Position numbers and translations under genes: made by a program. A DNA stretch of 64,000 bases, from contig CM000434.1 in NCBI GenBank assembly GCA_000165345.1, positions 928,001 to 992,000 on the forward strand, in the 5' to 3' direction. Positions 9,427 to 54,062 of this stretch are shown here, in pieces. The notes under the pieces are model-generated. The model was not told the origin of the DNA. It saw only the letters and a list, made by a program, of their open reading frames with translations, and searched no databases. The first letter of the stretch is position 1; every line of letters begins with the position of its first letter.

Positions 9427-9487
9427 TGCATGCATGCAATTATTTATTGAACTCCACGTGTGGCGCCAAACTTGGGTGCATGTAATT
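9427..9487. promoter_or_regulatory. Motif cluster between the PDE 3' end and the 9901 gene: ATGCATGCATGCAAT, CACGTG, TGGCGCCAAA, GTGCATG
   Basis: atgcatgcatgcaat at 9427-9440, cacgtg at 9455-9460, tggcgccaaa at 9461-9470, gtgcatgtaat at 9477-9487, about 420 bp upstream of the ATG at 9901. Confidence 0.5.
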
Positions 9488-19635: not shown

Positions 19636-20165
19636 TGAATTGTTAAATTACAATTCTATTCTTACATACTTTACCTCCAACAAACCTTTCCTTATAATTT
19701 AAATATATATTCTCTATCATTAGTTGTTATTTTATAATTTGTTTCTATATATTATTGTCCACATAATTATTTAAATTACGTGTTATATTCCTATACCGGT
19801 TATACCATCCACATGCACTTGCAAAAATTTGCATTGAAAGGAAAGTGCATGTGCATGTAGGCAGAGTTTGAAAGTTAAAAAAAAAAAAAATGAGTAAAAT
19901 TTAGGAATTAGTAATGAATATAAATAAAGAAAGGTTAATGACATTAAATTTAATTAAAATGAAGTTGTCAGATAGAATAATAAATCAAATTAATTTTACT
20001 TTGGATTAATGGTACTTATTCTTTGCTTTTTGTTTTTGAGGAACTTGAATCTCCTAATAGAAATCAGAACAAACAGTTATAGAAGGATCAATAATGCAAA
20101 TGTTAAAGATGAAAAAATAATAGAGAATATATTTAATCCATTTAAAATTATATTCTCTAATTAAT

Positions 20166-28062: not shown

Positions 28063-31000
28063 ATGGAAGAACAAGAGAGGAATGGGCCAGCTATTAATGG
28101 GGACCAGTCTGTTTCTCGACCTTATGCTGCCATATCAGTATCAGCAATGCCCCAAAACCAGAATAGGCCATTACAATCATTTGTTCCAGTCCCTGAAGGA
28201 GAAAGCAATGACTTGAATATCAGAGAGGTTCAAACTTCTACAAATACTTCTATGGCGGAAGATAATGCTCAACTGTTACCTATCAATCATTCTTTTTCCA
28301 AGCATACTGACTCTATTCCAGCAGTATCTAAACTAAATACTACTGTTTCCATTAATAACAGTAATAGCGCCACAAACACTAATGCAAATCCTATAAGCTT
28401 TAAATCTAATATAGCAAGTGGAAACATTGAGCCAAGTGGTAACAGTAATAACTGCTCTGGAAATACTCAAAATGGTACTTTAAATTTAGATTTATACCAA
28501 GCCGCTCAACAGATCCAAACAGGGAACCAGGCAAAGCCAATAATTGCAGGTTTAGGAAACACTAATGGATCTCTTAATACTCCTTTGCAGTTTACTGCTG
28601 AGCAAATTCACCAGCAACAGTTGATGTTACTAAATGCGATACAACAACAACATATTAAGCAACAACAACAACAGCAACAGCAACAGCAACAACAGCAACA
28701 GCAACAACAACAACAACAACAACAACAACATATTAAGCAACAACAACAGCAACAACAGCAGCAGCAGCAACAACAACAACAACAACAGCAACAACAACAA
28801 CAACAACAACAGCAACAACAACAACAGCAAGCACAAAATCCTTCACAATTACATGCGCAATTGCATGCACAACAGATCTTTAATACTATGATCCCCCAAC
28901 ATGCTCAGATTAATCCAATGATTTTTCAAAATCCAATATTAATGAATGCACTTCAGTCAGGTGGGACAAATCCAATGGGTGTTCCATCACAACAAGTAGT
29001 GGGCCAACCTCATTCACCACACCCAATGGGCTTGCAGCCTTTTCCTATGCATTCAATATTGCTGCCAACCCTATTACAAGCTCAAATTCAGGCACAAATG
29101 AGACAGACATCATCAAACCAGTCAGTTCCGTCCAGTATTTCAGTGGAGAATAGTTCAATTGCAAAAGGAGTAAGCCAAGGTATAGGAAAACTTCCGGCAG
29201 ACTCTCATGAAGCAAAAAGTACTAATAACGAGAATATTGCTCCCTCTGGAGACGAGAATAATGCGAATGATAGTAAGGCAGAAGAGACTATTACAAATAA
29301 CTTGATTAGTTCTACTTTAGCAACCGAGGAAAAGAAAGGAGGAGATGATAATGATGCAACCTCCCAAGGTATAGGTATAAGCTCAGCCCCTTCTCAAGTA
29401 GCAAATGATAGCAATGGTATAGTAGAGAATTCTCAACCCGCTAAAACTAAGGAGGAAAGTAAAGAAACAACGGGATTATCTTCTCAAGAAAATACTCAAT
29501 TAACTGAACTAAAATCTAACATTGATAAGGCAGACTCTAATGCCATTACTGGGCCAGTTCAACAAATGGATTCAAATTCAGTTAAGACTTCTCCATCATT
29601 AGTTCCAAACTCTGGAGGGAACCAACTTACAACTCCATTATTAAATCAATCTCAGCAACAGGCACAACATGCAGCATTAATTCAAGGAGGGTTGTTGCCA
29701 GGGCTTGGTATTCCAATGACCCAACCAGGCGTTCCAGGTGTTCCAGGTGTTCCAGGTGTTCCAGGTGTTCCAGGTGTTCCAGGTGTTCCAGGTGTTCCAG
29801 GCGTTCCAGGCGTTCCAGGCGTTCCAGGAAGCCAAGGAGGATTAGTTAATCCATTTTTGATGATGCAAAGAATGTCTGCAGCAAATCCTATGCTTTTAGC
29901 ATTCAACCCTCAGCTAGCTGCTGCTGCTGCTGCAACAGCTGCAACATCTACAGGTTCAGGAGGACAGGCTCAAATTCCAGCTCAACCTCAAAATATGCCT
30001 CCAATTGTTCCTCCTACTCCCCAAGGTGTTGCACAACAACTTTCCCAAATGATGGGTTTCATGGGAGGGGGTGGAGGTTCTGGAGGAATTGAGGGTTTCC
30101 ACCAATTCTTCCCTGGATTAAATATGGGTGGGGAATATATTGGAGGATTACTTCCAGGAGCTTTAGCTGCAGCTGGACTGAACATTGGAGGAGGTATTAA
30201 TAGTGCAAATGCAGGTGTAGGGGGTGGAAATAATAATGCAGGATTTAATGGAATGGTACCGGGAATAATAGGATCAGGAATTGGTGGAGGATGTTTATTG
30301 GAAAATGATCTTGAAAGATTACATTCTCATGCAGAAAGTCTTGTAAAGACTTTATTAGATACATCAGTACCTAAATCAGGTATTAGATTACGCCTTGAAT
30401 GGGATAGAAGAAGATATTGTTTTAAATTTACAGTCTACCAAATAGAAGAAGTGAGGGATTCTCTTGGTTATCAAAAGAAAAGATTAATACCAATCGACCA
30501 AGATGAGTTATTTGTCAATGTGAATGCATCAAAACAATTAAGCATAGACAATGTGGAAAAAGCAATGTGGAGTGCGTTTGTTTCTGTTCGTCATACTTTG
30601 GCGAAGTACTGTGATCGGCAAGCTGGGCAACGACGTCAAAGCGGGGCAGGCTTAACCTCAACTGCATCAGGACGTAACTTAGGATCCAATTCCCTTGTTA
30701 AGTTGGATGAGAGCGGTCTAATTTCTGGTATTAGCGGAAAAGTTAACAAATCATTGAAGAAGGATGAGCAATTGCATGGTGGATTATTGGATGGCAAAAA
30801 GTATATCCCAGGTAGTGTGGGAGGAGGATTAATTTCCGACTTACCTGGTATTGGAGCAGGTGCTGCTGGTCTTGGAGGTAGAACATATAAATCTGATCCA
30901 TATAGTAATAATGTAGGAGGAATTGGTTCAGCAGGAGGAGTATCTATGGGCGGAAATTCTTCAATTGGTACAAGGGGAAGAAGAGGTTATGGTAGTGGTA

Positions 31001-33159
31001 GTTGTACTACCACTACTAGATCAGGAAGATTTGTATCCCTTAAATATGGCTATGATGATATTCTAATGAGTGATGATGATGCAATTTTAGGTGCTGATCA
31101 AGAGTATGTAGGGGGAAGAAAGGGAAGAGGAAAGAGTTCAAAGTATGGTTCAGGAGCTGTTGGAGGAGGATCTTCATCTGGAGAGGATGAGCATGGTATA
31201 GTTTCAGGATCAGTTTCTAACAATAATAGATATGCAAAGACTTATTTGACAAGTAGTAGAGGTAGTAGAAGAGGAGGTAATGGAGCATATTCATCAGGGA
31301 ATAATACTGGTACTGGAGGAATGAGTGTATATAGAACAAGAGGTTCAGGATTATCACTTTCAGATAATTATGATTCTTTGGGAGGCGGTATATCAATTTC
31401 CACAAATGTTCCTATATTTGTATTACAAAAAGATGATCCAAATAAGAAGAGCAACTCTCTTGTTGGATTATATGCAGAATGGGTTGATAAGAATACTATT
31501 TGGGATGTTAGAAAGGGACCTTTTAAGACGGTTTTTGTTTCCGAGAGTATTAAAGATTTGGATTATACATCAGATAAGAGGGGAACTTTAAAATTTACAA
31601 CTAATAACTACTTGAAATGGGATCCTTCTCATCTGATCACAGATTTAAGAGGGATTCATATTCCTCTTTCTTTAGCAGGCAAGTACTTTGGACTTCTTAA
31701 GAATGAAAGAACTAAAGGGGATAAAGAAGATGTGAGAAGTAAAGTAGATAAGATTACAGATCAAACTTGTGCTATTTCTACTGTTACAAATAATGATCAA
31801 GTTGGTATTAACAAAGAAGAGCAATCATCTTATTTAGATTCAAATATTGAAGCAGGAAATAAATCAGCTCCAATTACTATTAAAGGTAACCATGTTCCAA
31901 ATGCTAATCAGATTAGATTTATATCTAATGATGGGAGTTTTAAAAGCCAGCAATTATTTAATAATAATATAGTAGGAGGAGAAAAACTTAATAATGAGAA
32001 CCAGGAAGAGCTTGAGAGCAAGTTATTGGAGAGTAAACTATTAGAATTGGAAGCTGTTGATTCAGTTTTAGTATCAACAATTCAAACAACAGCAGCTTTA
32101 GAGCAAAGAAAAAAGCGTGAAAATAAGAATTCTTGTATATCAGTACCAACTGGATCATTCTTAATTAGAGCTTTTTATAGTAATAATGGCGTAAATAATA
32201 ATAATGGTAATCATTCAGATAGTACAAATGAAGATGAAAATAGTTCAGTAAATGGAGGACATTCTGGAAATGGAATTGAACATACAAATCACCTAATTAT
32301 TTTTAATAATGAGGAGCTTGAAGAATACAAACATCTTGTATTGAGGTTTATGCATCAACAAAATGGAAATGATGATTATCATTTAATTGAAAATTATAAC
32401 AATACAAATAATATAAAGAATGATGAAGTGGTTTCAGAAGCTGTTGTTAAATCACAAGAGATAATGGATTCTGTGAATACTACTGAAGGAATAAATGATC
32501 ATCAATCAAAGAATTCAGTTTCTCAAACAATAACAACAGGATCAGGAAGAATTCCTTCAAGAGGAATTAAAAGAAGAGGGTCATTGAAGAATCAGACAGA
32601 TATTACTATGAATGGAGGAGGAATCGAAGGTAATTCAACAACTGTTTTAGAGGGAGGTAGTACTTGTAGAAACACTACTGATGATCATTCATCTTCAATG
32701 ACAATATCAGGTACAAATATTAATTCAAATTCAGGTAGTAGCTCATCATTAACAACAGCTTTGAATGGTGGAGGAGTGTTAGGACAGCATTCTTCTTCTA
32801 ATAATAATAATAATCATAATAATAGCGGCAATGGAATTTCTTCATCATATGGAGGAGTTGTTAATGACGATACGGTCTCCTCAGGAGGAGCAATTGCAGT
32901 ATCTGCAATGTTAGAGGGACTAATTACCTCAGTTAGAGGAAGCTCAGGAGACAAATATAGACAGCAGCAACTGATGCAAGCATATCCCCAGAATAGATTT
33001 GTATCTAAAAAGAAATGCAGAGAGACAAACGAAATCTTGGCAAAGTATGTTAATGATTTAGCCAGTGAGTATTGTCATCGCAATTTTGGGTCAAGCAACT
33101 TGGCTGATGGTTATATTAATGCTTTCAATAGTCATGTTTTGAAGAATTTTAATAAATAA
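28063..33159 (+). CDS. Very large (1698 aa) Gln/Gly/Ser/Asn-rich low-complexity protein with polyQ tracts, a (PGV)12 repeat and Gly-rich regions; probably nuclear or regulatory, function unknown
   Basis: Single uninterrupted ORF. Long polyQ (CAA/CAG) at about 28641-28830, twelve perfect PGV nonamers at 29724-29831, and scattered non-repetitive islands (e.g. SGIRLRLEWDRRRYCFKFTVYQIEEVRDSLGYQKKRLIPIDQDE) that might be globular domains. Confidence 0.65.
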   Translation: MEEQERNGPAINGDQSVSRPYAAISVSAMPQNQNRPLQSFVPVPEGESNDLNIREVQTSTNTSMAEDNAQLLPINHSFSKHTDSIPAVSKLNTTVSINNSNSATNTNANPISFKSNIASGNIEPSGNSNNCSGNTQNGTLNLDLYQAAQQIQTGNQAKPIIAGLGNTNGSLNTPLQFTAEQIHQQQLMLLNAIQQQHIKQQQQQQQQQQQQQQQQQQQQQQQHIKQQQQQQQQQQQQQQQQQQQQQQQQQQQQQQQAQNPSQLHAQLHAQQIFNTMIPQHAQINPMIFQNPILMNALQSGGTNPMGVPSQQVVGQPHSPHPMGLQPFPMHSILLPTLLQAQIQAQMRQTSSNQSVPSSISVENSSIAKGVSQGIGKLPADSHEAKSTNNENIAPSGDENNANDSKAEETITNNLISSTLATEEKKGGDDNDATSQGIGISSAPSQVANDSNGIVENSQPAKTKEESKETTGLSSQENTQLTELKSNIDKADSNAITGPVQQMDSNSVKTSPSLVPNSGGNQLTTPLLNQSQQQAQHAALIQGGLLPGLGIPMTQPGVPGVPGVPGVPGVPGVPGVPGVPGVPGVPGVPGSQGGLVNPFLMMQRMSAANPMLLAFNPQLAAAAAATAATSTGSGGQAQIPAQPQNMPPIVPPTPQGVAQQLSQMMGFMGGGGGSGGIEGFHQFFPGLNMGGEYIGGLLPGALAAAGLNIGGGINSANAGVGGGNNNAGFNGMVPGIIGSGIGGGCLLENDLERLHSHAESLVKTLLDTSVPKSGIRLRLEWDRRRYCFKFTVYQIEEVRDSLGYQKKRLIPIDQDELFVNVNASKQLSIDNVEKAMWSAFVSVRHTLAKYCDRQAGQRRQSGAGLTSTASGRNLGSNSLVKLDESGLISGISGKVNKSLKKDEQLHGGLLDGKKYIPGSVGGGLISDLPGIGAGAAGLGGRTYKSDPYSNNVGGIGSAGGVSMGGNSSIGTRGRRGYGSGSCTTTTRSGRFVSLKYGYDDILMSDDDAILGADQEYVGGRKGRGKSSKYGSGAVGGGSSSGEDEHGIVSGSVSNNNRYAKTYLTSSRGSRRGGNGAYSSGNNTGTGGMSVYRTRGSGLSLSDNYDSLGGGISISTNVPIFVLQKDDPNKKSNSLVGLYAEWVDKNTIWDVRKGPFKTVFVSESIKDLDYTSDKRGTLKFTTNNYLKWDPSHLITDLRGIHIPLSLAGKYFGLLKNERTKGDKEDVRSKVDKITDQTCAISTVTNNDQVGINKEEQSSYLDSNIEAGNKSAPITIKGNHVPNANQIRFISNDGSFKSQQLFNNNIVGGEKLNNENQEELESKLLESKLLELEAVDSVLVSTIQTTAALEQRKKRENKNSCISVPTGSFLIRAFYSNNGVNNNNGNHSDSTNEDENSSVNGGHSGNGIEHTNHLIIFNNEELEEYKHLVLRFMHQQNGNDDYHLIENYNNTNNIKNDEVVSEAVVKSQEIMDSVNTTEGINDHQSKNSVSQTITTGSGRIPSRGIKRRGSLKNQTDITMNGGGIEGNSTTVLEGGSTCRNTTDDHSSSMTISGTNINSNSGSSSSLTTALNGGGVLGQHSSSNNNNNHNNSGNGISSSYGGVVNDDTVSSGGAIAVSAMLEGLITSVRGSSGDKYRQQQLMQAYPQNRFVSKKKCRETNEILAKYVNDLASEYCHRNFGSSNLADGYINAFNSHVLKNFNK
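28641..28830 (+). repeat. CAA/CAG trinucleotide repeat (polyglutamine coding), two blocks separated by catattaag
   Basis: Seen directly; the reverse complement gives the spurious poly-Leu ORF 28630..28836. Confidence 0.95.
29724..29831 (+). repeat. 12 tandem copies of the nonamer ccaggYgtt encoding (PGV)12
   Basis: ccaggcgtt ccaggtgtt x7 ccaggcgtt x3 ..., perfect 9-bp periodicity with only a C/T wobble. Confidence 0.95.
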
Positions 33160-34814: not shown

Positions 34815-35711
34815 CTAAATATTAAGCTTCAAAACTCCTCCTTTGCTTTGGACATTATTAACTCCAGAACCATCATCATCAAAAGTAGTTGTAATTAAAT
34901 CGACTTTTTCTTCATGTATTAAATTCATATCAACAGTATGATCATTAGCATCCCCCTCAGCATTTGCTAAACTAACCTTCTCTCCAGGTTTGAACGCTGG
35001 CATTCCCTTATAGGGACATCCAGAACATCTGAAAGCATCACCTAAGTAACAATTGCCACAACTTGAGCGAGCTGTACCTGTCTCAACTTTCTCCTGATAT
35101 ACCTTTCTTGCAGCTTCAACTCCAATTTCCTTCTCAAGATCAGCTCTTCCACAATTACAGTTGTTACAGGCTCTTTCTTTTGACTTACAACTTTCTTTTC
35201 CTTGTCCAAGAGGAACATAATTCTTGATATCTGGTACAGAACCCTCTAAGTCAATATCATCAACAAGTACTTTACCTTCTTCAGGTTTCCAACTGGGCTT
35301 TTCAGCTTTAATAACTATCTCAAAATCACTATCAGATGAATTTAATCCATCACCCTTCAATTTTTTTACCTTAATAAACCCAGAAAATAACAAATTCCTT
35401 TCAAAGGCTTTAACTTTATCAATAGAGTCTAGAGCCAATATATTCACTTTTAAAACTGATCCAAAATCCAACACCCCATAAAACTCTTTCAAAAATTCAA
35501 ATGTAAAGATTTCACCCAAAATTGATCCTGATGATAAATAAATGGATACAATTCTAAATTCTCCCTTCTTTACAATAGCTCTTAAATCAGATAAGGATGA
35601 AAACTTTCCAAATTTATCCTCTTCCTTCTTAATTCTATTCAGCTCTGACAAAAATACCTCACTCTCCTCTAATTTACTATCACTTTGATGAGTAATTATT
35701 AACTGAGTCAT
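34815..35711 (-). CDS. Anamorsin / Dre2 (CIAPIN1-family Fe-S cluster assembly protein)
   Basis: C-terminal twin cysteine motifs characteristic of the CIAPIN1 domain: [19 protein letters not shown] and [33 protein letters not shown]. The N-terminal methyltransferase-like fold region is also present. Confidence 0.8.
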
Positions 35712-35810
35712 ACCAACAAATCCAGCAATATTTCTCTTAAAATGTTATTTTCTTCCTTTAACAATTTTATATTAATTTATTTCCTCGAAATTTACTTTGA
35801 ATTAGAAATT

Positions 35811-35900
35811 TTGGCGCCTTTTGACTTTTTTAAACCAATTAAAAATTTTTACATAGCATGACCGGTATTGCAAGAAAAAATGTGCATGCAACACGTAATA
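35811..35900. promoter_or_regulatory. Anamorsin upstream region: TTGGCGCC box, ATGACCGGTATTGCAAG, and the 17-mer GCATGCAACACGTAATA
   Basis: ttggcgcc at 35811-35818, catgaccggtattgcaag at 35858-35875, gcatgcaacacgtaata at 35884-35900. The last is identical to 38321-38337 upstream of Ndc80. Confidence 0.55.
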
Positions 35901-35977
35901 GATGAAAAATATGATAAAACTTCTTTTTTAATAATAAATGTGGGGCAGGGTAAAGGAAGTATGTTTTGAATGAAAAT

Positions 35978-38068
35978 TTACTTTTTCCATTTTTCAACTT
36001 CAATTAACTTAGAATTATTCCTCAGTTTTACTTGATTTTTCAAATTAGAAATCGAATTAAGTGAATTTGAAAGATTTTGGATAATATACTCTTTAAGTTT
36101 AAAAATTGCCTCAGCATCTGACTGAATAACTTGTTTGCATTGAATAATTTCATTTCTAGAATGGCTTTCTTGAAGATTGCTTTGTTGTTCAAGTTGAATA
36201 ATACGACTCTTTGCCTTCTCCAACCTTTTTAGAGCTTCATCTTTGTTACGTTCAAACTCTGCCTTATAACTCTTTACTTTTTCTTGAATTTGTTCTAATT
36301 GCCTCATCTCCCTTTTGTCACAGACTGATAAATCTCCATCCAAATTTTTGATCTTTTTCTCCAAAGCATCACATGCCTGTTTCTTTTGAATTATAGTATC
36401 TTTTGTACTCTTCATTATTTCACTGAATTGTACTTCTTGAGTTTTCAGTTTTCTCTTCCACATTTCAACTTCAACAATACATCTTTTGCAACTATGTTTC
36501 ATGTTACTCCAATTCTGTCCAATGATTCCATCGACTCCTTGAGATTTATCATTGCTTCCAGAATATGAAATATTTAAAGATAAAGGTTGAAGCAAATTGA
36601 ATGAACAAACTTCATTAGTTCTTATATCATTTGAGGTAATATTTGTAATTTCTTGATATATACTATTCCAAGCTCGACTTAAATTATATAAATTAGTTGA
36701 ATGTTCCTCAATAGATAATTCAATCTCCCAGTTTTCCTTTTCAGTATTTTCTCTTTCTGTCCTTAAATTACGTATTGTTTGTCTTTTGACTTTCATATCC
36801 TGATAAACTCTTGAAACATCATCCCTTTGTATTCCTTGATTGGCAATTCTCTTTTGAAGCTTTTCAATTTCATCCTCGATATCTCTCAACTCCTTCTTTT
36901 TTATGTTCAAAATATTTTCAGTATCATTACAAGAATTTTCCATTTGTCGAATAGAATTTTGACATTGACCAACAGCATGTTCCATTTTTAACAAATCCTG
37001 AGAAAGCGTGTGATTTCTTTGGAGCAATAACTCTCCTTCCTGTAATTCGTGATTGATTTTTTGGATTTCCATATTCATCTGTTCAAGTTCATGCTTTTTC
37101 TTCTCTAAAGCCTGTTGAGCCTGGTTCTTCCTTTCTCTGCAATAAGCTTCCAAAGTCTCATTTAGTAATCCTCCATCATTCTGACCATTCAGAAATAACT
37201 TATAACTCTCACTTAACCTTCTATTCAATGTTTGAGATAACAATTTTGACGAATCTAAATTATTGTTATTTCCTTCAAAATTTGGAAAACCATTCGCAAC
37301 ATTTGAATTTGCATGCTGAAAAATATTAGACAAAGTACTTGTTAGAGATGTATCTGCCATATAACCACCAAATTCTCCATCTTTGCTATAATTCAAATGT
37401 GGGAAGACAGCTTGTTCATAATCTAATAACTCGCAGAGCCATGTCATTGCTGCAATGTGTTGTGGCCAAGTATTTGGAGCTCCAGGTGCAATAATAGTTG
37501 TTTTATTAATAGTAATAGGATATCCTATATCTTTAAAGAACCTTGGAATCTCATCATCTGGCTTAGATATTTTTATTCTTGGATCATACTGGCTTATAAT
37601 AAATTGTAAAACTTCTAAATATAATGCTCTAGTTGGACTATTTAAAGTTTTTGGATTAATCTGATTTGGATATCCTCTCTTACTCAAAAATGTTAATATT
37701 GTCTTCAATCCTTCTCTTCTGCTATCTGAAATACTTCTCCCTTTTGATGATGACGCTGCTGCTGAGCTCATATTTCCAGTCATTGAAGATGTTCCTACTG
37801 CATTTGCTCCCCTTTGAGAATTTCCACCTCTAGATGATGAATATGCCCAAGCATTACTTGTATTATTTATATTATTACTATTGCCACCTTTCATTAATAA
37901 TGATGACGTGGCAAAATGTGTAGGTGATTGAGTCTTATTTTGCCCTATAGAAAACGATGTCATTACAACATCTTGGCTATTAAGATCTCCATTCTCTGAA
38001 TTATCTCTAAACCCTGTTGTTCTTCTCATTGAATTTTGGCCAAAAGGACGAAAAGCATTACTCGACAT
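35978..38068 (-). CDS. NDC80: Ndc80/HEC1 kinetochore protein (N-terminal calponin-homology domain plus long coiled coil)
   Basis: The CH-domain block RALYLEVLQFIISQYDPRIKISKPDDEIPRFFKDIGYPITINKTTIIAPGAPNTWPQHIAAMTWLCELLDY matches the Ndc80 signature (...PRIFKDLGYPF...GAPHTWP...). The remaining approximately 450 aa are coiled coil. Confidence 0.8.
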   Translation of the reverse strand: MSSNAFRPFGQNSMRRTTGFRDNSENGDLNSQDVVMTSFSIGQNKTQSPTHFATSSLLMKGGNSNNINNTSNAWAYSSSRGGNSQRGANAVGTSSMTGNMSSAAASSSKGRSISDSRREGLKTILTFLSKRGYPNQINPKTLNSPTRALYLEVLQFIISQYDPRIKISKPDDEIPRFFKDIGYPITINKTTIIAPGAPNTWPQHIAAMTWLCELLDYEQAVFPHLNYSKDGEFGGYMADTSLTSTLSNIFQHANSNVANGFPNFEGNNNNLDSSKLLSQTLNRRLSESYKLFLNGQNDGGLLNETLEAYCRERKNQAQQALEKKKHELEQMNMEIQKINHELQEGELLLQRNHTLSQDLLKMEHAVGQCQNSIRQMENSCNDTENILNIKKKELRDIEDEIEKLQKRIANQGIQRDDVSRVYQDMKVKRQTIRNLRTERENTEKENWEIELSIEEHSTNLYNLSRAWNSIYQEITNITSNDIRTNEVCSFNLLQPLSLNISYSGSNDKSQGVDGIIGQNWSNMKHSCKRCIVEVEMWKRKLKTQEVQFSEIMKSTKDTIIQKKQACDALEKKIKNLDGDLSVCDKREMRQLEQIQEKVKSYKAEFERNKDEALKRLEKAKSRIIQLEQQSNLQESHSRNEIIQCKQVIQSDAEAIFKLKEYIIQNLSNSLNSISNLKNQVKLRNNSKLIEVEKWKK

Positions 38069-38277
38069 TTTCTTCCCTCGCTACCAACATCAATTCCTTG
38101 CTTCTCAATCTTGTGTGTTCTTACTTGTTTTTATATCAAGAGAAGACTTACAAATCCAACAATTTATATATTATTCACTTGCTTTTGCTCAATTTAATTT
38201 CCTGCCACCTTATTCAGATTTTTCTCTTCAAATCACTGTTTTCATAAATACCCCTATAATATGTGGTTGTTTTCATT

Positions 38278-38337
38278 CCCGCCCAAAAATGTTGTGGGGT
38301 ATTTTCATTTATGCAAAGCTGCATGCAACACGTAATA
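38278..38337. promoter_or_regulatory. Ndc80 upstream region: CCCGCCCAAAAA E2F-like box plus the 17-mer GCATGCAACACGTAATA
   Basis: cccgccc at 38278-38284 and gcatgcaacacgtaata at 38321-38337, about 210-270 bp upstream of the minus-strand ATG at 38068. A further tttgcatgcaaag at 38576-38588 and ggcgggaaattt at 38617-38628 lie about 510-560 bp upstream. Confidence 0.55.
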
Positions 38338-38692
38338 TATTTGAGTATATGACCGCCAAGCATTTGTATAAGGCACATTTGTAAAAAAAAAAAAAGTTAG
38401 AACAGATAACTCAAATAATTATGAATAATAGGGTAGACACATTTTGAATAATTACTTAAAAATATCAATACAGTATTTTACCTTTCAAAACTAAACTAGG
38501 CTTAAATTAATTAATAAAATTGAAATTCAATCCATCTGCAAGAGCATTAATTTTATTATATAATATATATTTCATTTGCATGCAAAGCAAAATAACTAAA
38601 ATTGCATACAAAATCAGGCGGGAAATTTAGTGAATTAAAATGCACACAAATGATTATTGAGCTTTAATTGGCAAAAAATTGGGATTTTTTGT

Positions 38693-41600
38693 TTACCACA
38701 AGTCTACATCAATATCCAGATCAGTAAGTGCCACATTTGTATCATCAGCTTGGTTGGAAACCTCTTGTAAGAATGCTGGAGTTTGTACTTCTCCTTCATT
38801 CGCAAACCAGCTTGCCATTTCATCAAGTTTACTGGTTTTGACAGCATTCGCCTTTGGCGCCATATTTACTGTCAATTTTTGCTTTTGTAATGTAGGTCTG
38901 GATTCTGTTGTTCCTCGTTTAGGTTGGGAAACTGATTTCTTTTCTGATAGTTTAAGCTTGACTGTGCTTGCGCTCTTTTCTCTCTTTGCGAGATTTTCTT
39001 GCTTTTGTTTTAATCTTCGTTCTTCATCCAACTTTGTTTTACGTACGAGATCTACTGATGAAATGAAATTCCATAATACACGGAAATAATCTGGCCAAAC
39101 AATTCTTTGAATCGTATTTTGCGGTTCTCCCAAGTATAGTGCCATCTTTTCTAGATTTTCTTTAACACTTTTCATAGTTGCTACTAAATCTTCAATTCTA
39201 GGCTCAGTATCGGAAACAAAGTCTGCTAGAATCTTAGCAATGGGATCCTTTTCTCCCATAGGGCCGGCTCTCTCATTACTTTTCTGAGCTGATTTCATTG
39301 TATCTGTGACCTTATTTAAAGATCCATTCAGTGATTGAATTTCACCTTCAATAGCACCTAAATCGCATTTGGCTGCTTTCTCTACTAAAGCCAATGGCTC
39401 TGCCAAAGAAAGCAATTCTGGCTTATCTCTCCAAATAATCTCTGTGATATATTGAAGCAAAGTTTTAATAGGTTTAGTACTCGAACGAACTTCACATAAC
39501 TTTGATAGTGAACTCATTCTAAAACCTTTAGCTTCTCCCTTTTCTGTATTAAGATTCAAAACATTACCAACTGAAAGAATTATAGAAAATACTTTCTTAA
39601 GCTTTGAATTTGTCTTAATTTCGTTGCAAACTGTAATAATCTCTTGTAAAGGCGTCATTAATTCATTAAAGGAATTGTCAAACGAAAGAATAAACAGCTG
39701 AGCGTTCAAACGAGCGCCAAACATTGGAATACCAATCATTGCAGCTATAAATTGTTCAGGCTTATCCAACTGAGTCAAGTCACCTCCTGCATCAATATAC
39801 TCTTTTACGATTGCAAACTCTTCTGGAGTTGGGGTCATTAAAATCAAAGCTTCTGTAGCTTCTGTATCCAAAATCTTCTTATCAAGATCCAATATAGCAT
39901 CACGCAATTGTTGGAATGTATATGCACTGAACTTTGATAATGCAATACTTATATTGTATGCTCTCTTTGAGTCTGGTAAAATTTGCATGACCTTTGGCTT
40001 CTTTGTCGCCTCTGTCGCCTTCTTTGGTTTTGCTGATTCGATACCAAATACTTCCTCCAAATTTCCGAAATCCAACTTGATTGGTTCTTTAATATCCCAA
40101 ATTGTACCTTGAATATTCTCAACCTTATCCCAATGTAACTTCTTTGTCTTCGATTCTGGACCACTTGGCTTACTTCCTGTCTTTCCTCCAAATTTCCCTG
40201 CCTTTCCTTTTGGGGGTCCTTTTCCTGTTGGGGGTCCTTTCCCACCTGGTGGTCCTTTTCCCCCTGGAGGACCCTTTCCTCCTGGAGGTCCTTTCCCTTT
40301 CCCTGGTGGGCCCTTTCCTTTTGCTGGCGGCGTGCCCTTTGCCGGTGGCGCGCCCTTTGCCGGTGGCGCGCCCTTTGCTTCTGCTGGTTCTGCCTTTGGT
40401 TCTGTAGGAGCACCTTCTTTTGCTTGCGGTGGCGGAGATTTGTTAATAATGTTGTCCATTTTCCCAATACCATCCAGCAATCCAGATAATGCCTTTCCTG
40501 ACTTTACACCTGCTCCTACAATACCTGTGTATACCCCTCCATCCGAAGGTTTGTATTGAATCATTGAGCTAATAAGGGCGCCAACTCCGCTACCTTTAAG
40601 AAGTTCTATCACACCCTGTGAATCAGGAGAAGGAAGTCCCCATTTTGCTGATGCTGTAAGAGCAATTCTAGTTGAAGCGCATACAAATGGCTCAAGATCG
40701 ATCACATAAGGCAACTTTGTTACTACGTTACCCCCATCATCTAAAAATGAAATGCATGCAAGTCTTTCATTACCAGATTCTTCTACATCAGGTTTTGCTC
40801 CTTTAATCTTTGCTAAAATATCATCTGGAGGAAGTTGTTGATCGATACCTACTATCTGAGTCTGAGTTACTTTAACTTGTTTAGCCTCCTCCTTATCTTT
40901 ATTTCTTTGTCTAACTAAAGGAATCAATGCATTTGGAATCCATATTGATTCTTTGAAATAAGCCTTCATTTCTTCCTTACCTGCATAATCTACTAATGGC
41001 AAATAAAATGGTAAACCTGTACTCTCATCTTTTTCTATTTGAGTTAACAACTTCCCTTCTGGAGTTATACAAGGTTCTGGAATCTCCCATTTCTCCAAAA
41101 CTGTCTGAGCTTCTTCATTTATCATCATTGTCACTGACTGCTCTCCCATAACTGGGAATCCTCTTGTTAACTTTGGAATGTTTATTATAGGTAACTTCTT
41201 TCTTTCTGTCTTACTAAATGGAGGAAGAGAAAGCATTGTAGAAACTCCTAGATAGTCTGGACCTGTAATTCTTACTTTCAAGTGAGGTAAAATTGCTGTT
41301 GAACTCACTGTCATACTCTGAAATGACTCTCCATGTAGTGCTCTGATTCTTGAAGTGCATAAAAGTTGTTGAGTTTGGTTATTTGAAAATGGGGTACTTC
41401 TATTTAACCCTCTCAAATTCTTTGGATCAAATAAAAAAGTCTCCAATTGTCGATACCTTAATTGATCAATACTTGGACAAATTGGACTTGCTAATAATGG
41501 TGATTCCTCATACATTATTCTTGTTAATTTACTTGATTTTCCTAAGGTATCGGTAATTATTTCTTTTAAAGATCTCTCTGCTCTTGATTCTAGTGATTCT

Positions 41601-43609
41601 CTTGCATCAATACACTTGTTCTGAAGCTCATGAGCTATATAAGAGTCTGTACAACTGCTTACATTCTCTGTTAAGTATACTTGGGTATCTGCATCTAATA
41701 AAGTTATCAATTCTAATACATATCTTGTATCAGGATGATCAAATCCTAAGTTCTCTCTTCTATATTTATAAACCTCATTATAAAGCTCTAAAGCATATCT
41801 AAAGTTTCCAGCCTGGTGAAAAATACATCCCAAAGCTAGTATATTGTCTTGTACTAATGGAAACTCTCTGTTATTGTAGATCCTCATTAACATATCTAAA
41901 GCTACCATTATATGTTGTACTCCTTGTCTACAATCTCCAAGTAATCGATAAACTAATCCCAAATTTGAATAGCAATCAGCTACACGAGGATGAGGTGGAT
42001 TCTTATTATGATCTCCCAGAACCTGTTTTCTGATTTCCAGACAATTATGTAACATTTCCTTACATTTTTCAAAATTCTTTATTCTGAAATAGTAACTTGC
42101 TGCTGTAGAGTATGCATCACTCATAACTAAGTCTCCTGAACCATAAACTTCATTTACTAATGAAAGATATTTTTCAAGGTAAAATGCTGATGATGTATGA
42201 TCTCTATACATACTACATAGATCAGAGACTGTTAGTACCAGACTACATAATACTGAAGAATCACATGAAACTGATGGTCCTACAGCTGTAACATTTTGAG
42301 TTGAACCTCCAGATCCTGATAAATTTGAGATATTGCTAATATGAGAAGAATCATTTTTTGCATTTTTATTCTCAGAATTGCGATCTGCAACAGCTAAGAT
42401 GGTATTTTCCACAAGAAATCGAAGCTCTTTAAGATATTGTTCTCCTTTACGTAATTCTCCTGTTAAACCACAACATTTAGCAATAATGATTAATTCTACA
42501 ACCATTATACCTTCTAATGGGTGTCCAAGGTACTTGGATAGAAAAGCTCGAGATATTTCATAACAATGTAAAGCATTCAGCATGGCATCTGAGTATTGAG
42601 CTTTCAAAAACTTCTCTAAAGCTGAGCTTCTTAGTCTTTGAATGATTCTTTGAATTTCATGTATTTCTCCATCTCCACGTGATTCTTCAAGACGTTGTAA
42701 AAGAAGAAGGGAATCTGTCATAATTTCAAACTTCTCATTAACAATTTGAGGTCTGGCTTTTGTTGTTTGTCCAAATAAGAGATTATTCTTTTCAGAAGTT
42801 GTTAGTGTAAAGTGTCTACTTGCAAACTCTTCTTTAAATGTTTGACTTAAAGCTGCTAGTGAGTGTTCAGCAGCTTCTGTTAATGCTGGATCCAATACAC
42901 TTACGTGTAGATTAAACATATCATCTTCTCTTTGAGAAATTCGAGCATTTCTTCCTTCTTTTTTTTTCAAGTTACTTTTTCCAGGAGCTTTATCTTGGAA
43001 AAGTAGACGTTTAATAGGGCCAACATCAAAAGGAAGAGTTGATTCAACAAAGGTACTTCTATTACTTAATTCTGAGTAACGTCCATCTTTAGAGAGATTG
43101 TTCTTCAATAGTTTAGATTCACCATTAATAGTGGTTGCAGTAGAAGATGCTCCTGTTGAGCTGGAAGGTAGACTACTAGCTTTGGAATCTTTACTTATAC
43201 TTTTCAGAACAGTTTTTGCTGAGGCTGGCTTTGATGGTACGCTTACTGGAGGAGCGTGACCATTGGATACTGGTGTATCATTTAAAGGTTCTGATGAATT
43301 TTTAGGTATTGGGGCCTTTGGGGCTGGTTTTAATGCAGTAGGAGGTCCTTTTGAGACCTTTGGACCAGGAGGAGAGGGTGATGGAGAAGCTGACTTTGGT
43401 GGAGGTGGTGTTGATGGTTTTGGTGGAGGTGGGGATGATGGTTTTGGTGGAGGAGATTCTGAAAGGTTTGGAGAAGGAGTTGAAGATAATTTTGAAGGTG
43501 GTGGAATTTTCGTTGCTGGTTTCCCTCCAAGTGGTTTAGCAGGGGGAGGCGGTTTTTTTCCACCAGGAGGAGAAAGAGGAGCCTTGCCTGGCACACCCAA
43601 TTTTTTCAT
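38693..43609 (-). CDS. Formin (FH1 poly-Pro/Gly region plus FH2 domain) with a Pro-rich N-terminus and a TPR-like helical-repeat region (1638 aa)
   Basis: FH1: GAPPAKGAPPAKGTPPAKGKGPPGKGKGPPGGKGPPGGKGPPGGKGPPTGKGPP. It is followed immediately by FH2 (KKLHWDKVENIQGTIWD..., MQILPDSKRAYNISIALSKF, GNVLNLNTEKGEAKGFRMSSLSKL). The N-terminal region has TPR-like repeats (ADCYSNLGLVYRLLGDCRQGVQHIMVALDMLMRIY) and a PPPPKPSTPPPPK tract. Confidence 0.85.
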   Translation of the reverse strand: MKKLGVPGKAPLSPPGGKKPPPPAKPLGGKPATKIPPPSKLSSTPSPNLSESPPPKPSSPPPPKPSTPPPPKSASPSPSPPGPKVSKGPPTALKPAPKAPIPKNSSEPLNDTPVSNGHAPPVSVPSKPASAKTVLKSISKDSKASSLPSSSTGASSTATTINGESKLLKNNLSKDGRYSELSNRSTFVESTLPFDVGPIKRLLFQDKAPGKSNLKKKEGRNARISQREDDMFNLHVSVLDPALTEAAEHSLAALSQTFKEEFASRHFTLTTSEKNNLLFGQTTKARPQIVNEKFEIMTDSLLLLQRLEESRGDGEIHEIQRIIQRLRSSALEKFLKAQYSDAMLNALHCYEISRAFLSKYLGHPLEGIMVVELIIIAKCCGLTGELRKGEQYLKELRFLVENTILAVADRNSENKNAKNDSSHISNISNLSGSGGSTQNVTAVGPSVSCDSSVLCSLVLTVSDLCSMYRDHTSSAFYLEKYLSLVNEVYGSGDLVMSDAYSTAASYYFRIKNFEKCKEMLHNCLEIRKQVLGDHNKNPPHPRVADCYSNLGLVYRLLGDCRQGVQHIMVALDMLMRIYNNREFPLVQDNILALGCIFHQAGNFRYALELYNEVYKYRRENLGFDHPDTRYVLELITLLDADTQVYLTENVSSCTDSYIAHELQNKCIDARESLESRAERSLKEIITDTLGKSSKLTRIMYEESPLLASPICPSIDQLRYRQLETFLFDPKNLRGLNRSTPFSNNQTQQLLCTSRIRALHGESFQSMTVSSTAILPHLKVRITGPDYLGVSTMLSLPPFSKTERKKLPIINIPKLTRGFPVMGEQSVTMMINEEAQTVLEKWEIPEPCITPEGKLLTQIEKDESTGLPFYLPLVDYAGKEEMKAYFKESIWIPNALIPLVRQRNKDKEEAKQVKVTQTQIVGIDQQLPPDDILAKIKGAKPDVEESGNERLACISFLDDGGNVVTKLPYVIDLEPFVCASTRIALTASAKWGLPSPDSQGVIELLKGSGVGALISSMIQYKPSDGGVYTGIVGAGVKSGKALSGLLDGIGKMDNIINKSPPPQAKEGAPTEPKAEPAEAKGAPPAKGAPPAKGTPPAKGKGPPGKGKGPPGGKGPPGGKGPPGGKGPPTGKGPPKGKAGKFGGKTGSKPSGPESKTKKLHWDKVENIQGTIWDIKEPIKLDFGNLEEVFGIESAKPKKATEATKKPKVMQILPDSKRAYNISIALSKFSAYTFQQLRDAILDLDKKILDTEATEALILMTPTPEEFAIVKEYIDAGGDLTQLDKPEQFIAAMIGIPMFGARLNAQLFILSFDNSFNELMTPLQEIITVCNEIKTNSKLKKVFSIILSVGNVLNLNTEKGEAKGFRMSSLSKLCEVRSSTKPIKTLLQYITEIIWRDKPELLSLAEPLALVEKAAKCDLGAIEGEIQSLNGSLNKVTDTMKSAQKSNERAGPMGEKDPIAKILADFVSDTEPRIEDLVATMKSVKENLEKMALYLGEPQNTIQRIVWPDYFRVLWNFISSVDLVRKTKLDEERRLKQKQENLAKREKSASTVKLKLSEKKSVSQPKRGTTESRPTLQKQKLTVNMAPKANAVKTSKLDEMASWFANEGEVQTPAFLQEVSNQADDTNVALTDLDIDVDLW
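40325..40380 (-). repeat. GC-rich 18-bp tandem repeat (gccctttgccggtggcgc x approximately 2.5) inside the formin FH1 coding region
   Basis: ggcggcgtgccctttgccggtggcgcgccctttgccggtggcgcgccctttgc. This local GC island in an AT-rich genome encodes (GAPPAK)3 on the minus strand. Confidence 0.85.
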
Positions 43610-44286
43610 AGTTGAATAATTTTTTTCTGTTTAAATATTAGTTAATTTAGACCTATTTGAGTATAACTCTTTAATTCTTTTCATTTATTGATTCTTTTTT
43701 TTTTTGACTCAGAGTTTTCCCAATCTAGAAAAGGGTCTAGATTGACATTTTCTTTCAATATTGAAGAAAAAAGCGTTATTCTTTGTAATTTGTTAGTTTT
43801 TTAATTTAGGGAATCTTAAAAATATCCACAAGAAATTTAAAAATAAAGAAAAAAAGAAAATGCACCCCTATCTCTGTGGTTTTTATAATTTTAAAATTTG
43901 TTGGGTATTTCCAGAAAATTTTCACCAGAGTTAGGGGTACTAATATATCTACATGCACACAAAGATATTATTGGTGTATTTTGGGAAAAAAAACAACAAA
44001 TATTTTTTTTGACAAGTTTTAGTGTTTGTTTTACTTTGAATTTTTACTATTGTATGTTCTTATTATCTTCTTTGTTAATTTCTATATCTTATAATTTTTT
44101 TTTTTGTAATTCAAAAACACATTTTAATTTATTTACAAATATGACGTGTGTGCATGGTAAGAAATTTATTGGGAATATTAATTTTTAAATTAATATGTTA
44201 AATGGAAAATATATTTAAAGAGAAATGAGAATAAAAGTAAAAAATTAATACATTTTTTTTTTAGATAAAAATATGAAATAGGATAA

Positions 44287-45310
44287 TTATCTAACAAGTT
44301 CCTTTAAAAAATGTTCGTAGTTAAATCCTCCATCATTAGATGGGAAATCCCTAATTAAAAAAAATAGTAAAAATGTTAAAAGCAGGTTGGGGGAGGCTGT
44401 TTGCATGCATTTACTTGCATGGCAAATTATCACTATACCGGCGTACATGCAAGATGTACAAATAGGCGGCATATGGCACGTATTGAAATATATGAACTTA
44501 CTTTAAAAGTATTTCAATTTCTTTATTGGTTAAAACTTCTCCTGTATTAGTTAATAGAGAAGTCAGCTGCTGGCTAGTGATTGATCCAGAGTTCTGTAAT
44601 ATTGGAAGAAATTGATGAATTAGAAATAATATTATAAATAGAAAATGGAGAAGTGGCACAAAGTATATTGAACTTACATTTGAGTCATACGATCTGAAAA
44701 ATTGAACTAGATTTTCAAAAGTGTCTTCTGGATGTACAATAGAATCACAAAATTTTACAAAAGCTTGTAAATCACATGTTTGACCAACACTTGCGACAAA
44801 TCTCTGGACTTCGCTTTCAGATGGCGCTAATCCCTAAAATTAGGAATAAAAGTGATGTTTAATTAATAATAAAAATGGAGTGGAAAACTGACCATTCTTC
44901 TAACAATTTCTCCAATTTTATTGGTTTGAATGGTTGGACCTCCTCCCTATAGTTTAAAAGAGAATAATGGTATTAAAAGATGATATTAAAGATTGCTTGG
45001 GATTAGGAGTTGGGGTTAATATGGCGGAGTAATGCATTTATTTCTCCATTTTACATATCCCAAGGATGACTTGGTAAAAGCTTAACTTACAGCAGCATCT
45101 CTGAATGAAAATTCAATTCTCTCTTTGGACTATAAATATGAAAAAAGAATTAATTTATTTGCAAAAAAAAAAAAAATTAAGTAATGATAATTAATAGTTA
45201 GTCATTTCTATGAGATTCAAGTTTCTTCCCTAGTTTCTCAAAATTCACTAAAGGAAGAAAAAATGGATGGAGCGTAACAATCAAAAGAACTTACAATCTT
45301 GAAAGGTGGC
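44287..45310 (-). CDS. Calmodulin-like / myosin light-chain-like EF-hand protein. Six exons on the minus strand: 45293..45310, 45089..45127, 44893..44946, 44678..44833, 44502..44593, 44287..44350 (140 aa).
   Basis: Hand-spliced translation: MPPFKI|SKERIEFSFRDAA|GGGPTIQTNKIGEIVRRM|GLAPSESEVQRFVASVGQTCDLQAFVKFCDSIVHPEDTFENLVQFFRSYDSN|NSGSITSQQLTSLLTNTGEVLTNKEIEILLK|DFPSNDGGFNYEHFLKELVR*. It aligns with calmodulin ([40 protein letters not shown]...). Donors are GTAAGT x4 and GTCAGT x1, acceptors TAG/CAG, and the frame is maintained across all junctions. Only the last exon appears in the ORF track (44287..44472). Confidence 0.7.
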
Positions 45311-45522
45311 ATCTAAATAACTGTATATAATTATTTTGCTTGCGATCTTCACACAAAATTGATAATCTATAAATTGTCTTTTTTTTTTAACTAAAATAAT
45401 TTGCTCTTGAATTTTTTCCCTCTTTATTTTTCATGCGCTTTTTTCTCTGTATAATAAAATCTTTATTTTATTTATTTCAAATATGCCGCCTTTTATTTCA
45501 CGACCAAATGGCAAAGCAGATA

Positions 45523-45558
45523 AAGGCGGGACTTTAGGGCGGGCAAATGTGCATGTTG
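45523..45558. promoter_or_regulatory. Divergent promoter between the two EF-hand genes: two GGCGGG boxes plus GTGCATG
   Basis: aaaggcgggac at 45523-45533 and tttagggcgggcaaatgtgcatgttg at 45534-45559, between the minus-strand ATG at 45310 and the plus-strand ATG at 45878. Confidence 0.5.
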
Positions 45559-45877
45559 AATCTTGTAATGTAAATTTTTCGATACCTTCGAAGTTAAAGA
45601 TTTAATAAAAATAAAAAAATTGTGAGGAATTTCAAAAAAAGAAAATTAAGCAAGAGTTAGAATTTAAATTGTTAAGATAAGAAGAATTTGTGACTGTAAT
45701 TGTTAAATATTGAGATACTGAACCTTTTATTTCTGAGAATTATTAAAGTGTAAGTGTGAGTTAATTTAGGGGACATTGATCAAAGAAAAAAAAGTATTGG
45801 CAAAACTGTTGTAATTGGGTTATTTAAATTTATTCATTTTTTTCTAAAAAAGGAGATTTAAAGTAAGAAAAGTAGAA

Positions 45878-47080: not shown

Positions 47081-47152
47081 TGCATGCATGCAATTAATAT
47101 TTTTTTTTAAAATTTGTGCAAATATTAACATATACCGGAGATTAGGCGCCAA
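47081..47152. promoter_or_regulatory. Promoter motif cluster upstream of the 47265 gene: TGCATGCATGCAAT, TATACCGG, GGCGCCAA
   Basis: tgcatgcatgcaat at 47081-47094, tataccgg at 47131-47138, ggcgccaa at 47145-47152, about 110-180 bp upstream of the ATG. Confidence 0.5.
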
Positions 47153-52262: not shown

Positions 52263-54062
52263 GCAGTAGGGAGGTGATTGAATGAAGGAAATATATATTT
52301 ACTTTGTGGATTATTGGCAGCTGTTATCTTTATAACTCGCCATATGTCCCATTGTTAAGATATTTATTATTTTCAACATTTATTTCATTAATATCCAAGC
52401 ATAGAAGTAATATTAATAATTCTTATTACAATGTTTATAACAGTTTTTTGTTTTATTTCATTTCCGTGCCTTTTTTTGTTAGTTTCACAAGTGGGAGAAA
52501 ATGTATTTTAACTTAAATAATGTAATGGGTAAAAAATTTTTGGTTTTGTTATTCTATTTATCAAGAACAAACAAATCTCTTATTTTTCCCTCCATTGCTA
52601 ATAATATTTCCTTTGGGGGAAAATTCTCTAAAATTTTGATCCAAATGAATCTCCAATAGCACTGATATGACTGTCAATACTAGAAATTTGTGCAAAAATC
52701 TCATTCAAATATGCATGCTTAGATTTTTTGTTGACACGTGTGGCGGTAAAAGCATGCAAATTTGTAAATACGTGTTTTGCAGATTCGCCGTACCGGTATT
52801 GCCAGTGTGAATTTTAACCACATAAACATGAATATGTGCATGCACAATTAAATTAGTTGTGAGGAACTAATGCTAAATTTTTACAAACAATTAAAATAAT
52901 TAAAAATTTTAGAATTTGAAATTCAATAGTTTTACCTTCAATCTCAAGAAGGAATATGCAATATATATATATGCATGTAAATATATATTAAAATAAACAA
53001 GAATCAATGAAATGACAAACTTAATTCAAATTTTCATTTATTCAATAAGCTATTATTTAATGAAAAATTGCAATTTTTAAGTCATTTATGTTCAGAAAAA
53101 TTAGGCGCCAATGCATTCCTTCATAATATTTCCTATTCCACCCCCCACATTACATTTGTTTTACTTGTAATGCTATTTGTGCAAGAAGTATAAAGCATAT
53201 ACAATTTTTGGAAATAAGTCAAAATTAAGAAAGGAATAAAATTTGGGATTTGAATTATTCAAAACTTTAAGAGCACGATTTGTGAACAATTTGGTATTCA
53301 AAAAGAAAAAAAAACAAGTAAACTTCAGAATATAGGTCACCCAGAGACAAAAAATATAGTTCTATTATTTTCATTAATATAAAAAAGCGACATACCAAAA
53401 TATAAATGGAGTTTATATTATTATTATTATTGTTATCGGGTCTCAAATAAAAAAATAAACTTTACTTCAAAATCTAATTTTGTATTAATATTTAATTTAT
53501 TTGTATTGGCTATAAACTGATCCAAGCAATAATCTCAGGAAGATATAAATAAATACCAATTAATACAGAAGGCAATAATAATAATAATAATTTTTAACTT
53601 TCTAATAGTTTATTCATACTTTTACACGCAAATTTATATTTTCAGATTCTGGAATTATTGCAAGTTTTTCTGTCGCAGAATTTGGCGGGCATAATTTCAA
53701 GATAATTCTTATGGTTGATCATAATTAAAAATATTTTTTCATTTTTGCCAACAAATTTGTTGGCTGAAGAAATAATAAAAGATAAACATTAAATTAATCT
53801 AAAGGAAAAATTGGAATTACGAAGTTTTTTTTTCTAGGGTGGAATTAAGCTATAATTATTAAGAAGATCTAAAACACACAAAACATAAGATAATTAGAGA
53901 TCTGAATGAATAAGTTCTCATTTATATTTGCTCATATATAATATATCTTAATAAAAGATTATAATATATGAACATTGTTATATTTACACACATTTATCAC
54001 ATAAATTGCAAATTTCCCAAGTATTTTAATATCTTTGGGAATTCTACTTATAACTTACTTTC

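Follow-up and report, generated by a model that had tools for sequence, protein, structure and literature searches.

The intergenic regions upstream of two neighbouring genes of Cryptosporidium parvum, anamorsin and Ndc80, share an 18-nt sequence that is probably a composite transcription-factor site, in which the published promoter motif AP2_1 is joined to the word ACGTGT. The setting is chromosome 6, within a 64-kb stretch (GenBank contig CM000434.1, positions 928,001 to 992,000; hereafter the window, with coordinates counted from its first letter) where anamorsin, Ndc80 and the adjacent formin gene all lie on the minus strand. The original prediction, made from the DNA letters, had drawn attention to a 17-mer, GCATGCAACACGTAATA, and this word was found exactly twice, on the plus strand at 35884-35900 and 38321-38337, as it had stated. 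The exact match is really 18 nt long (TGCATGCAACACGTAATA, at 35883-35900 and 38320-38337; TATTACGTGTTGCATGCA when both copies are read in the sense of the genes), and identity between the copies ends at once on either side. On the minus strand, each copy consists, 5' to 3', of TATTACGTGT followed by TGCATGCA. Relative to the anamorsin ATG, copy 1 occupies the upstream positions 172-189 bp away, and it sits 78 bp past the Ndc80 stop codon; copy 2 lies 252-269 bp upstream of the Ndc80 ATG. The distances noted earlier were right (172 bp and 252 bp between the respective ATG and the beginning of the 18-mer), as was the equal orientation of both copies relative to their genes.

That the 18-mer is more than a chance match is decided by its conservation across species. 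We compared the orthologous locus in 10 other taxa (C. tyzzeri, C. hominis, C. meleagridis, chipmunk genotype I, C. ubiquitum, C. canis, C. felis, C. ryanae, C. andersoni and Cryptosporidium sp., run SRR31860986), in all of which gene order is identical. The copy upstream of Ndc80 is exact in C. tyzzeri, C. hominis and C. meleagridis and has one mismatch in chipmunk genotype I and C. ubiquitum; in Cryptosporidium sp. SRR31860986 two mismatches turn ACGTGT into GTGTGT (CACACA on the other strand), and a [G/A]CATGCA core is still present in C. canis, C. felis, C. ryanae and C. andersoni. The TGCATGCA columns of this copy are invariant or nearly so in the 11 aligned sequences. The copy upstream of anamorsin has 0-1 mismatch in C. 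tyzzeri, C. hominis, C. meleagridis and C. canis (17/18 bases identical in the last) and 2-3 mismatches in chipmunk genotype I and Cryptosporidium sp. SRR31860986. In up to nine other taxa, the orthologous copies also keep their distance to the start codon, at 236-271 bp for Ndc80 and 182-212 bp for anamorsin.

Alignment-free footprinting with 7-mers proved too noisy in AT-rich DNA, and conservation was instead scored from a MAFFT alignment, in 18-nt windows, by the identity of each C. parvum base in seven more distant taxa. By this measure no window of the Ndc80 intergenic region surpasses the 18-mer (rank 1 of 384), and in the anamorsin intergenic region it comes second (rank 2 of 274, or rank 1 if moved by one base), with the caveat that MAFFT tends to anchor on shared words, which inflates such ranks. 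The ranks hold despite the wide range in base composition of the orthologous 9-kb locus, from a GC content of 0.32-0.35 in C. parvum, C. andersoni, C. ryanae and C. ubiquitum to 0.44-0.53 in Cryptosporidium sp. SRR31860986, C. canis and C. felis. The proposal of a composite cis-element upstream of both genes is supported. The element is also under selection, since in the genus-wide comparison it stands out as the best-conserved part of each intergenic region.

The two copies have evolved separately. Within chipmunk genotype I, C. canis and C. ubiquitum, the substitutions differ between them, indicating no concerted evolution; chipmunk genotype I, for example, has TATTACGTGTTACATGCA at one site and AATTACGTATTGCATGCA at the other. 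Most relatives have A as the first base of the anamorsin copy, and identity over 18/18 bases is specific to C. parvum and C. tyzzeri. The constrained core common to both copies is ATTACGTGTTGCATGCA, and the junction of the two halves and the ATTA lead are kept across species at both loci. Because orthologous positions are conserved while substitutions are copy-specific, the two sites show, as judged from the alignments, purifying selection, and a recent duplication, gene conversion or a repeat family is excluded. The identity of the copies would then be due to purifying selection, which constrains ~14-17 bases at two sites that evolve independently, and to one lineage-specific A-to-T change that made the 18th base match, and not to common ancestry of the DNA.

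A small duplicated promoter module, which the original prediction had offered as an option, or a gene-conversion tract between the neighbouring genes might be suspected from an 18-nt identity over a distance of only 2.4 kb, in the same orientation, with E2F, G-box and ATGACCG words near both copies. However, the identity breaks off abruptly at both ends, the flanks are non-homologous, and a search for longer gapped or ungapped similarity or repeats between the two intergenic regions found none. The order of motifs also differs: anamorsin has a distal G-box and a proximal TACCGGT, whereas Ndc80 has a proximal G-box and a distal GGCGGTCAT. Both copies are, moreover, already present in distant species, where they diverge independently. 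We consider such a module or tract very improbable.

The length of the match carries less weight than had been claimed. The figure of 4^-17 per site is overstated, as it leaves out base composition and the number of comparisons. Our word counts and non-coding statistics cover the 64-kb window, of which a crude open reading frame (ORF) model assigns 17 kb (27%) to non-coding DNA. In an order-2 Markov simulation of these 17 kb, 1.3% of runs gave two intergenic regions with a match of at least 18 nt (P ~0.013). As a calibration, the window holds an unrelated exact 18-mer, AGAGAATACTGTATCTAA, at 12531-12548 and 57517-57534, in two unrelated coding regions with dissimilar flanks, apparently a chance match. 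Given the simulated probability and this unrelated pair, an 18-nt match is moderately, not astronomically, improbable. The same two observations are what can be said for pure chance as the source of the identity, or for a piece of some dispersed repeat family that has nothing to do with promoters. Such an origin has next to no weight in our judgement, as the block is conserved at orthologous positions of both loci across the genus, its flanks are not repeat-like, and a search of the window for a third copy of the 17-mer or 18-mer at up to 3 mismatches found none. A search for ACGTGTNGCATGC at up to 2 mismatches likewise returned only the same two sites in the window. A dispersed repeat or mobile-element fragment was also considered as a candidate and rejected, given the 18-nt limit of identity, the two copies in the window and nothing longer common to both regions.

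The half of the element nearest to the gene, TGCATGCA, is a palindrome at 35883-35890 in copy 1 and at 38320-38327 in copy 2, and at both places it matches the published AP2_1 motif (BGCATGCAH/TGCATGCA; PMC3734150, Table 1). On the plus strand both copies read T-GCATGCA-A, which fits the AP2_1 definition, and both sites are non-coding and less than 1 kb upstream of an ATG. The word occurs 18 times in the window against 0.93 expected, with 13 of the 18 in non-coding DNA. TGCATGCA is known to be over-represented upstream of C. parvum genes and has been noted before in non-coding DNA of chromosome 6 (PMC3734150). It is bound in vitro by the AP2 domains of cgd2_3490 and cgd1_3520, and TGCAT-like motifs are in vitro targets of further ApiAP2 domains (PMC3734150, PMC4117751, PMC12246861); Plasmodium falciparum PF14_0633 also binds the AP2_1 motif in vitro. 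AP2-type binding, one of the comparisons suggested earlier, was the right lead for this half (PMC3734150, PMC4117751). The element resembles published AP2_1 sites in its exact 8-mer, its non-coding upstream place, the strong non-coding excess of the word on chromosome 6 and its co-occurrence with G-box and E2F sites. It differs in that the published motif is an 8-9-mer, while here ACGTGT is fused to it in a single orientation and the whole is conserved as a 17-18-nt block.

The second half, ACGTGT (ACACGT on the plus strand), abuts TGCATGCA on its gene-distal side, at 35891-35896 in copy 1 and 38328-38333 in copy 2, both on the minus strand. ACACGT is found 22 times in the window (4.1 expected), and in non-coding DNA 16 times (1.9 expected). 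In an unbiased ranking of 2080 hexamers by their excess in non-coding DNA, it takes rank 5, behind CATGCA, GCATGC, GGCGCC and CCCGCC. Non-coding ACACGT/ACGTGT sites lie at 5436, 5536, 9456, 16874, 19778, 33523, 35891, 38328, 44144, 51478, 52734, 52770 and 59964, in the forms TTACGTGT, TACGTGT or the palindrome ACACGTGT (at 5436, 16874 and 52734), and the word often directly adjoins E2F cores (9456, 33523, 52736) or a TGCAT-like word (44144).

The original prediction was correct that an ACGT-core word is present in the repeated element. Its plant-style label of G-box does not fit, since both copies read TACGTG/ACACGT with no CACGTG, and in Cryptosporidium the name G-box denotes G.GGGG. CACGTG does occur elsewhere in the window (5437, 9455, 16875, 52735). 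By plant ACGT-box nomenclature, TTACGTGT holds an A/G-hybrid ACGT core. The likeness to plant ACGT-core bZIP elements (CACGTG, A/G hybrid TACGTG) thus lies in the ACGT core of TTACGTGT and in the ACACGTGT palindromes of the window; the difference is that neither copy has the canonical CACGTG. A 2025 review mentions bZIP only in connection with the CAAT-box (PMC12246861).

A comparison with the AP2_2-like word CACACA/GTGTGT is also instructive. This word is bound by the AP2 domains of cgd4_600, cgd8_3130, cgd5_2570 and cgd6_2600, two of which have no predicted targets (PMC4117751). CACACA shares ACAC with ACACGT, the orthologous Ndc80 site reads CACACA in Cryptosporidium sp. SRR31860986, and in the window CACACA is almost exclusively non-coding (15 versus 1). 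Against this, the ACGT core lies outside the published logo as its text describes it. Set beside the CACACA core, the C. parvum copies read AACACG, in which 4 of 6 bases match. Given the CACACA reading of the Ndc80 ortholog in Cryptosporidium sp. SRR31860986, a CACACA-class AP2 domain is a candidate reader of ACGTGT, as judged from this sequence likeness; an ACGT-core binder such as bZIP is another candidate.

Whether the joining of the two words has any meaning is a separate question. Each word could be functional in its own right, with the abutment and the 18-nt identity meaningless and the AT-rich tails matching by chance. The longest words common to intergenic regions of the window are indeed nearly all seeded by known promoter motifs (e.g., the 16-mer TGCATGCATGCAATTA, TTGCATGCAAGTA and TTAGGCGCCAATG); E2F sites at 9456, 33523 and 52736 likewise have ACGTGT directly beside them, so that this word has more than one partner; and the match owes its first base to a derived change found in C. 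parvum and C. tyzzeri only. On the other hand, two of the 13 TGCATGCA sites have ACACGT in the same register, for which P ~0.0025 under random placement of the observed numbers of sites (a post hoc test), and across species both loci keep the junction and the ATTA lead. We regard a merely accidental abutment as unlikely. Beside this, TGCATGCATGCAATTA deserves a remark of its own: it is a 16-nt exact word containing a doubled AP2_1 site, present at 9427-9442 and 47081-47096 in two promoter-containing intergenic regions with unrelated flanks. For genome scanning in general, the case of the 18-mer shows that when C. parvum intergenic regions have a long exact word in common, the usual source is a small, constrained motif vocabulary and not duplication.

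The reading that we prefer is a composite site in which the palindromic AP2_1 motif TGCATGCA is joined on its gene-distal side to ACGTGT, often with a TT/AT-rich lead (TTACGTGT). Most likely, a TGCAT-class ApiAP2 protein would occupy TGCATGCA, and a second factor would sit on ACGTGT, for which the candidates are an AP2 domain of the CACACA/GTGTGT class and a protein that binds ACGT cores, such as bZIP; both factors, together with a proximal E2F site, may set the timing of transcription of the downstream gene. Both intergenic regions are built from one small vocabulary, comprising AP2_1, ACGTGT, E2F (GGCGCC/GGCGGG), the G-box TGTGGGG and TACCGGT. The sequence, its place, its conservation, the excess of its words and the unrelated flanks are observed, and the in vitro binding of TGCATGCA by AP2 domains comes from the literature; in vivo binding, the ACGTGT factor, cooperativity and the co-regulation of both genes are inferred. 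The composite is an ordinary, well-conserved instance of known Cryptosporidium promoter grammar, and its novelty is modest, consisting of the fixed AP2_1-ACGTGT fusion, which is outside published lists, and the depth of conservation of the Ndc80 module described below. A more ambitious version is doubtful: ACGTGT (YACGTGT, often TTACGTGT) might be an intestinal-clade promoter word outside the published lists, forming with TGCATGCA a bipartite site of fixed register and orientation to which two factors, or a single protein with two DNA-binding domains, would bind cooperatively and which would mark a small regulon including Ndc80 (kinetochore) and anamorsin (Fe-S/DNA synthesis).

Besides the anchoring tendency of the aligner, several observations weigh against the composite site. 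At the anamorsin site, neither half can be recognised in C. felis, C. ryanae or C. andersoni, and the ACGTGT half is gone from the Ndc80 site in C. canis and C. felis. The anamorsin copy of C. ubiquitum is one base shorter, so the spacing is not absolutely fixed. ACGTGT is not among the 25 motifs tabulated in PMC3734150 or in the table of the 2025 review (PMC12246861). Open chromatin in sporozoites, assayed by ATAC-seq (assay for transposase-accessible chromatin with sequencing), is reported to carry E2F motifs and no AP2 motifs (bioRxiv 10.1101/2025.01.17.633476). Finally, copy 1 lies so close behind the Ndc80 stop (78 nt) that it is possibly within the 3' untranslated region (3'UTR) of that gene.

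This last point belongs to an explanation at the RNA level, in which the element would serve the downstream gene from within its 5'UTR, or the upstream gene as a signal in the 3'UTR or for processing (e.g., a UGCAUG-type protein-binding site). Polycistronic transcripts have been reported in C. parvum, which would suit it. However, the distances to the upstream stop codons are disparate (78 versus 356 nt), whereas those to the downstream ATG are similar and conserved, and TGCATGCA has documented DNA binding by AP2 domains. The promoter words also concentrate in intergenic regions that hold the 5' end of a gene, and of the six convergent 3'/3' regions, five have none of them. An Rfam scan of 35400-39000 likewise found no family at an E-value of 1 or better. 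An RNA element is quite improbable on this evidence, and the DNA-level composite site remains our preferred explanation.

Both promoters contain further published motifs around the composite. Each intergenic region has a canonical E2F site between the composite and the ATG, in which the two resemble E2F/DP-driven Cryptosporidium promoters; the difference is that the 18-mer itself has no E2F core. Among the upstream motifs of C. parvum, none is more abundant than E2F (PMC3734150). Both sites have a core of the [C/G]GCGC[G/C] or GGCGGG type with T/A-rich flanks. In the anamorsin promoter the site is TTTTGGCGCCTTTT (35809-35822, 98-111 bp upstream of the ATG), which matches DTTGSCGCCH (PMC3734150) and whose GGCGCC persists through the parvum group and as far as Cryptosporidium sp. 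SRR31860986; in the window GGCGCC occurs 10 times in non-coding and five times in coding DNA. In the Ndc80 promoter it reads TTTTTGGGCGGGAAT in gene sense (38275-38289, minus strand, ~207-221 bp upstream of the ATG) and matches motif 4, TTTGGCGGGAAV, with GGCGG columns that are invariant or nearly so in all 11 sequences. The Cryptosporidium G-box TGTGGGG lies on the plus strand at 35939-35945, distal to copy 1, where it matches DTGTGGGG (ATGTGGGG, ending at 35945), and at 38293-38299, between copy 2 and the E2F site (CCCCACA in gene sense; TTGTGGGG, ending at 38299). The first is kept within the parvum group only; the CCCCAC of the second is invariant or nearly so in all 11 sequences, C. andersoni included. 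All seven TGTGGGG sites of the window are non-coding. The GC boxes that had been seen beside each copy are, then, real sites under another name, being E2F sites (GGCGCC, GGGCGGG) and TGTGGGG G-boxes, i.e., published motifs 2-4.

A companion ATGACCG element had also been proposed, and such a word does adjoin both copies (35858 and 38349, the first coordinate having been off by one), but it is no shared partner, since the two lie on opposite sides of the 18-mer and their conserved cores differ (ATACCGG versus TTGGCGG). Proximal to copy 1, the word reads ATACCGGTCAT in gene sense (35858-35868, minus strand; ATGACCGG as first given), with a conserved core, ATACCGG, that is kept out to C. canis, whereas its TCAT is not kept. 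Distal to copy 2, it reads CTTGGCGGTCAT in gene sense (38349-38360, minus strand; ATGACCGC as first given) and resembles an E2F half-site; it is kept only in the parvum group and chipmunk genotype I, and Cryptosporidium sp. SRR31860986 has GGGCGGGAAT there. By our estimate, ~2 shared 7-mers are expected by chance between two 80-bp flanks.

In gene sense, 5' to 3', the anamorsin promoter runs G-box, composite, TACCGGT, E2F, ATG, and the Ndc80 promoter runs TTGGCGG, composite, TTTGCAT, G-box, E2F, CAACCACATATTATAGGGG, ATG. Because this order differs, the two promoters, as far as their motif content tells, have a vocabulary in common and not an architecture. The remainder of the Ndc80 promoter module (38251-38318, minus strand) reads, in gene sense, CTTTGCATAAA ... 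CCCCACAAC ... GGGCGGGAAT ... CAACCACATATTATAGGGG and holds the conserved windows ranked second and third. Together with copy 2 it forms a module of ~90 bp (38251-38337) with AP2_1, TTTGCAT, CCCCACAAC, GGGCGGG and CAACCACATATTATAGGGG, whose core columns are invariant or nearly so in all 11 sequences, even that of C. andersoni, a gastric species.

How Cryptosporidium regulates its genes is poorly understood, with very few of its promoters studied in detail. Both promoters offer short, precisely bounded, deeply conserved blocks (the AP2_1+ACGTGT composite, the G-box, the E2F site and the ~90-bp Ndc80 module) that are suited to mutagenesis with a reporter. If ACGTGT and TACCGGT hold genome-wide, they would be additions to a motif catalogue of six families and candidate targets for CACACA-class AP2 domains or other orphan factors. 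TACCGGT is a side observation of the same survey: the palindromic (A)TACCGGT(A) is found at 19793, 25217, 33748, 35861, 52791 and 59811, with nine non-coding and one coding occurrence of TACCGGT. CCGGTA and ACCGGT take ranks 6 and 11 among hexamers, and (A)TACCGGT(A) is missing from published motif lists.

The genes themselves were identified as follows. Anamorsin/CIAPIN1 is an ORF of 298 aa (34815-35711, minus strand, ATG at 35711), with Pfam PF05093 on an identical called gene. Ndc80/HEC is an ORF of 696 aa (35978-38068, minus strand, ATG at 38068) with PF03801; its protein is identical to one in the C. parvum chromosome 6 records BX526834.1 and CP029785.1, and its cluster at 90% identity takes in C. 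hominis, C. meleagridis, C. tyzzeri, C. ubiquitum and chipmunk genotype I. The formin gene, with an FH2 domain, follows at 38693-43609 (minus strand). The intergenic region 35712-35977 (266 bp) is 5' of anamorsin and 3' of Ndc80, and the region 38069-38692 (624 bp) is 5' of Ndc80 and 3' of formin. Judging by product names and positions, Ndc80 is apparently cgd6_4140, and formin cgd6_4150; in the supplement of PMC3734150, cgd6_4140 falls in cluster 24 (membership 0.54) and cgd6_4150 in cluster 33. On the question of co-expression, a full-text literature search with the gene ids of the locus gave no match.

Several other features of the window merit mention. A second conserved cluster lies at 38575-38652, 40-120 bp past the formin stop, and contains TTTGCATGCAAAG, GGCGGGAAATTT (E2F) and TGCACACA. 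It is kept in the parvum group, chipmunk genotype I and C. ubiquitum, and partly in C. canis, and it might act as a distal element of Ndc80 or as the promoter of a transcript that is antisense or unannotated. At three places (1-2565, 43610-45877 and 52263-54062), segments of 1.8-2.6 kb lack an ORF of at least 100 aa, which is unusually long for this compact genome; they hold clusters of promoter words and may contain spliced genes, short genes or non-coding RNAs. An ORF of 1698 aa (28063-33159) contains long stretches of polyglutamine and, at ~29725-29830, a tandem repeat of GTTCCAGGT (Pro-Gly-Val), and its length varies from 1682 to 1698 aa among C. parvum assemblies.

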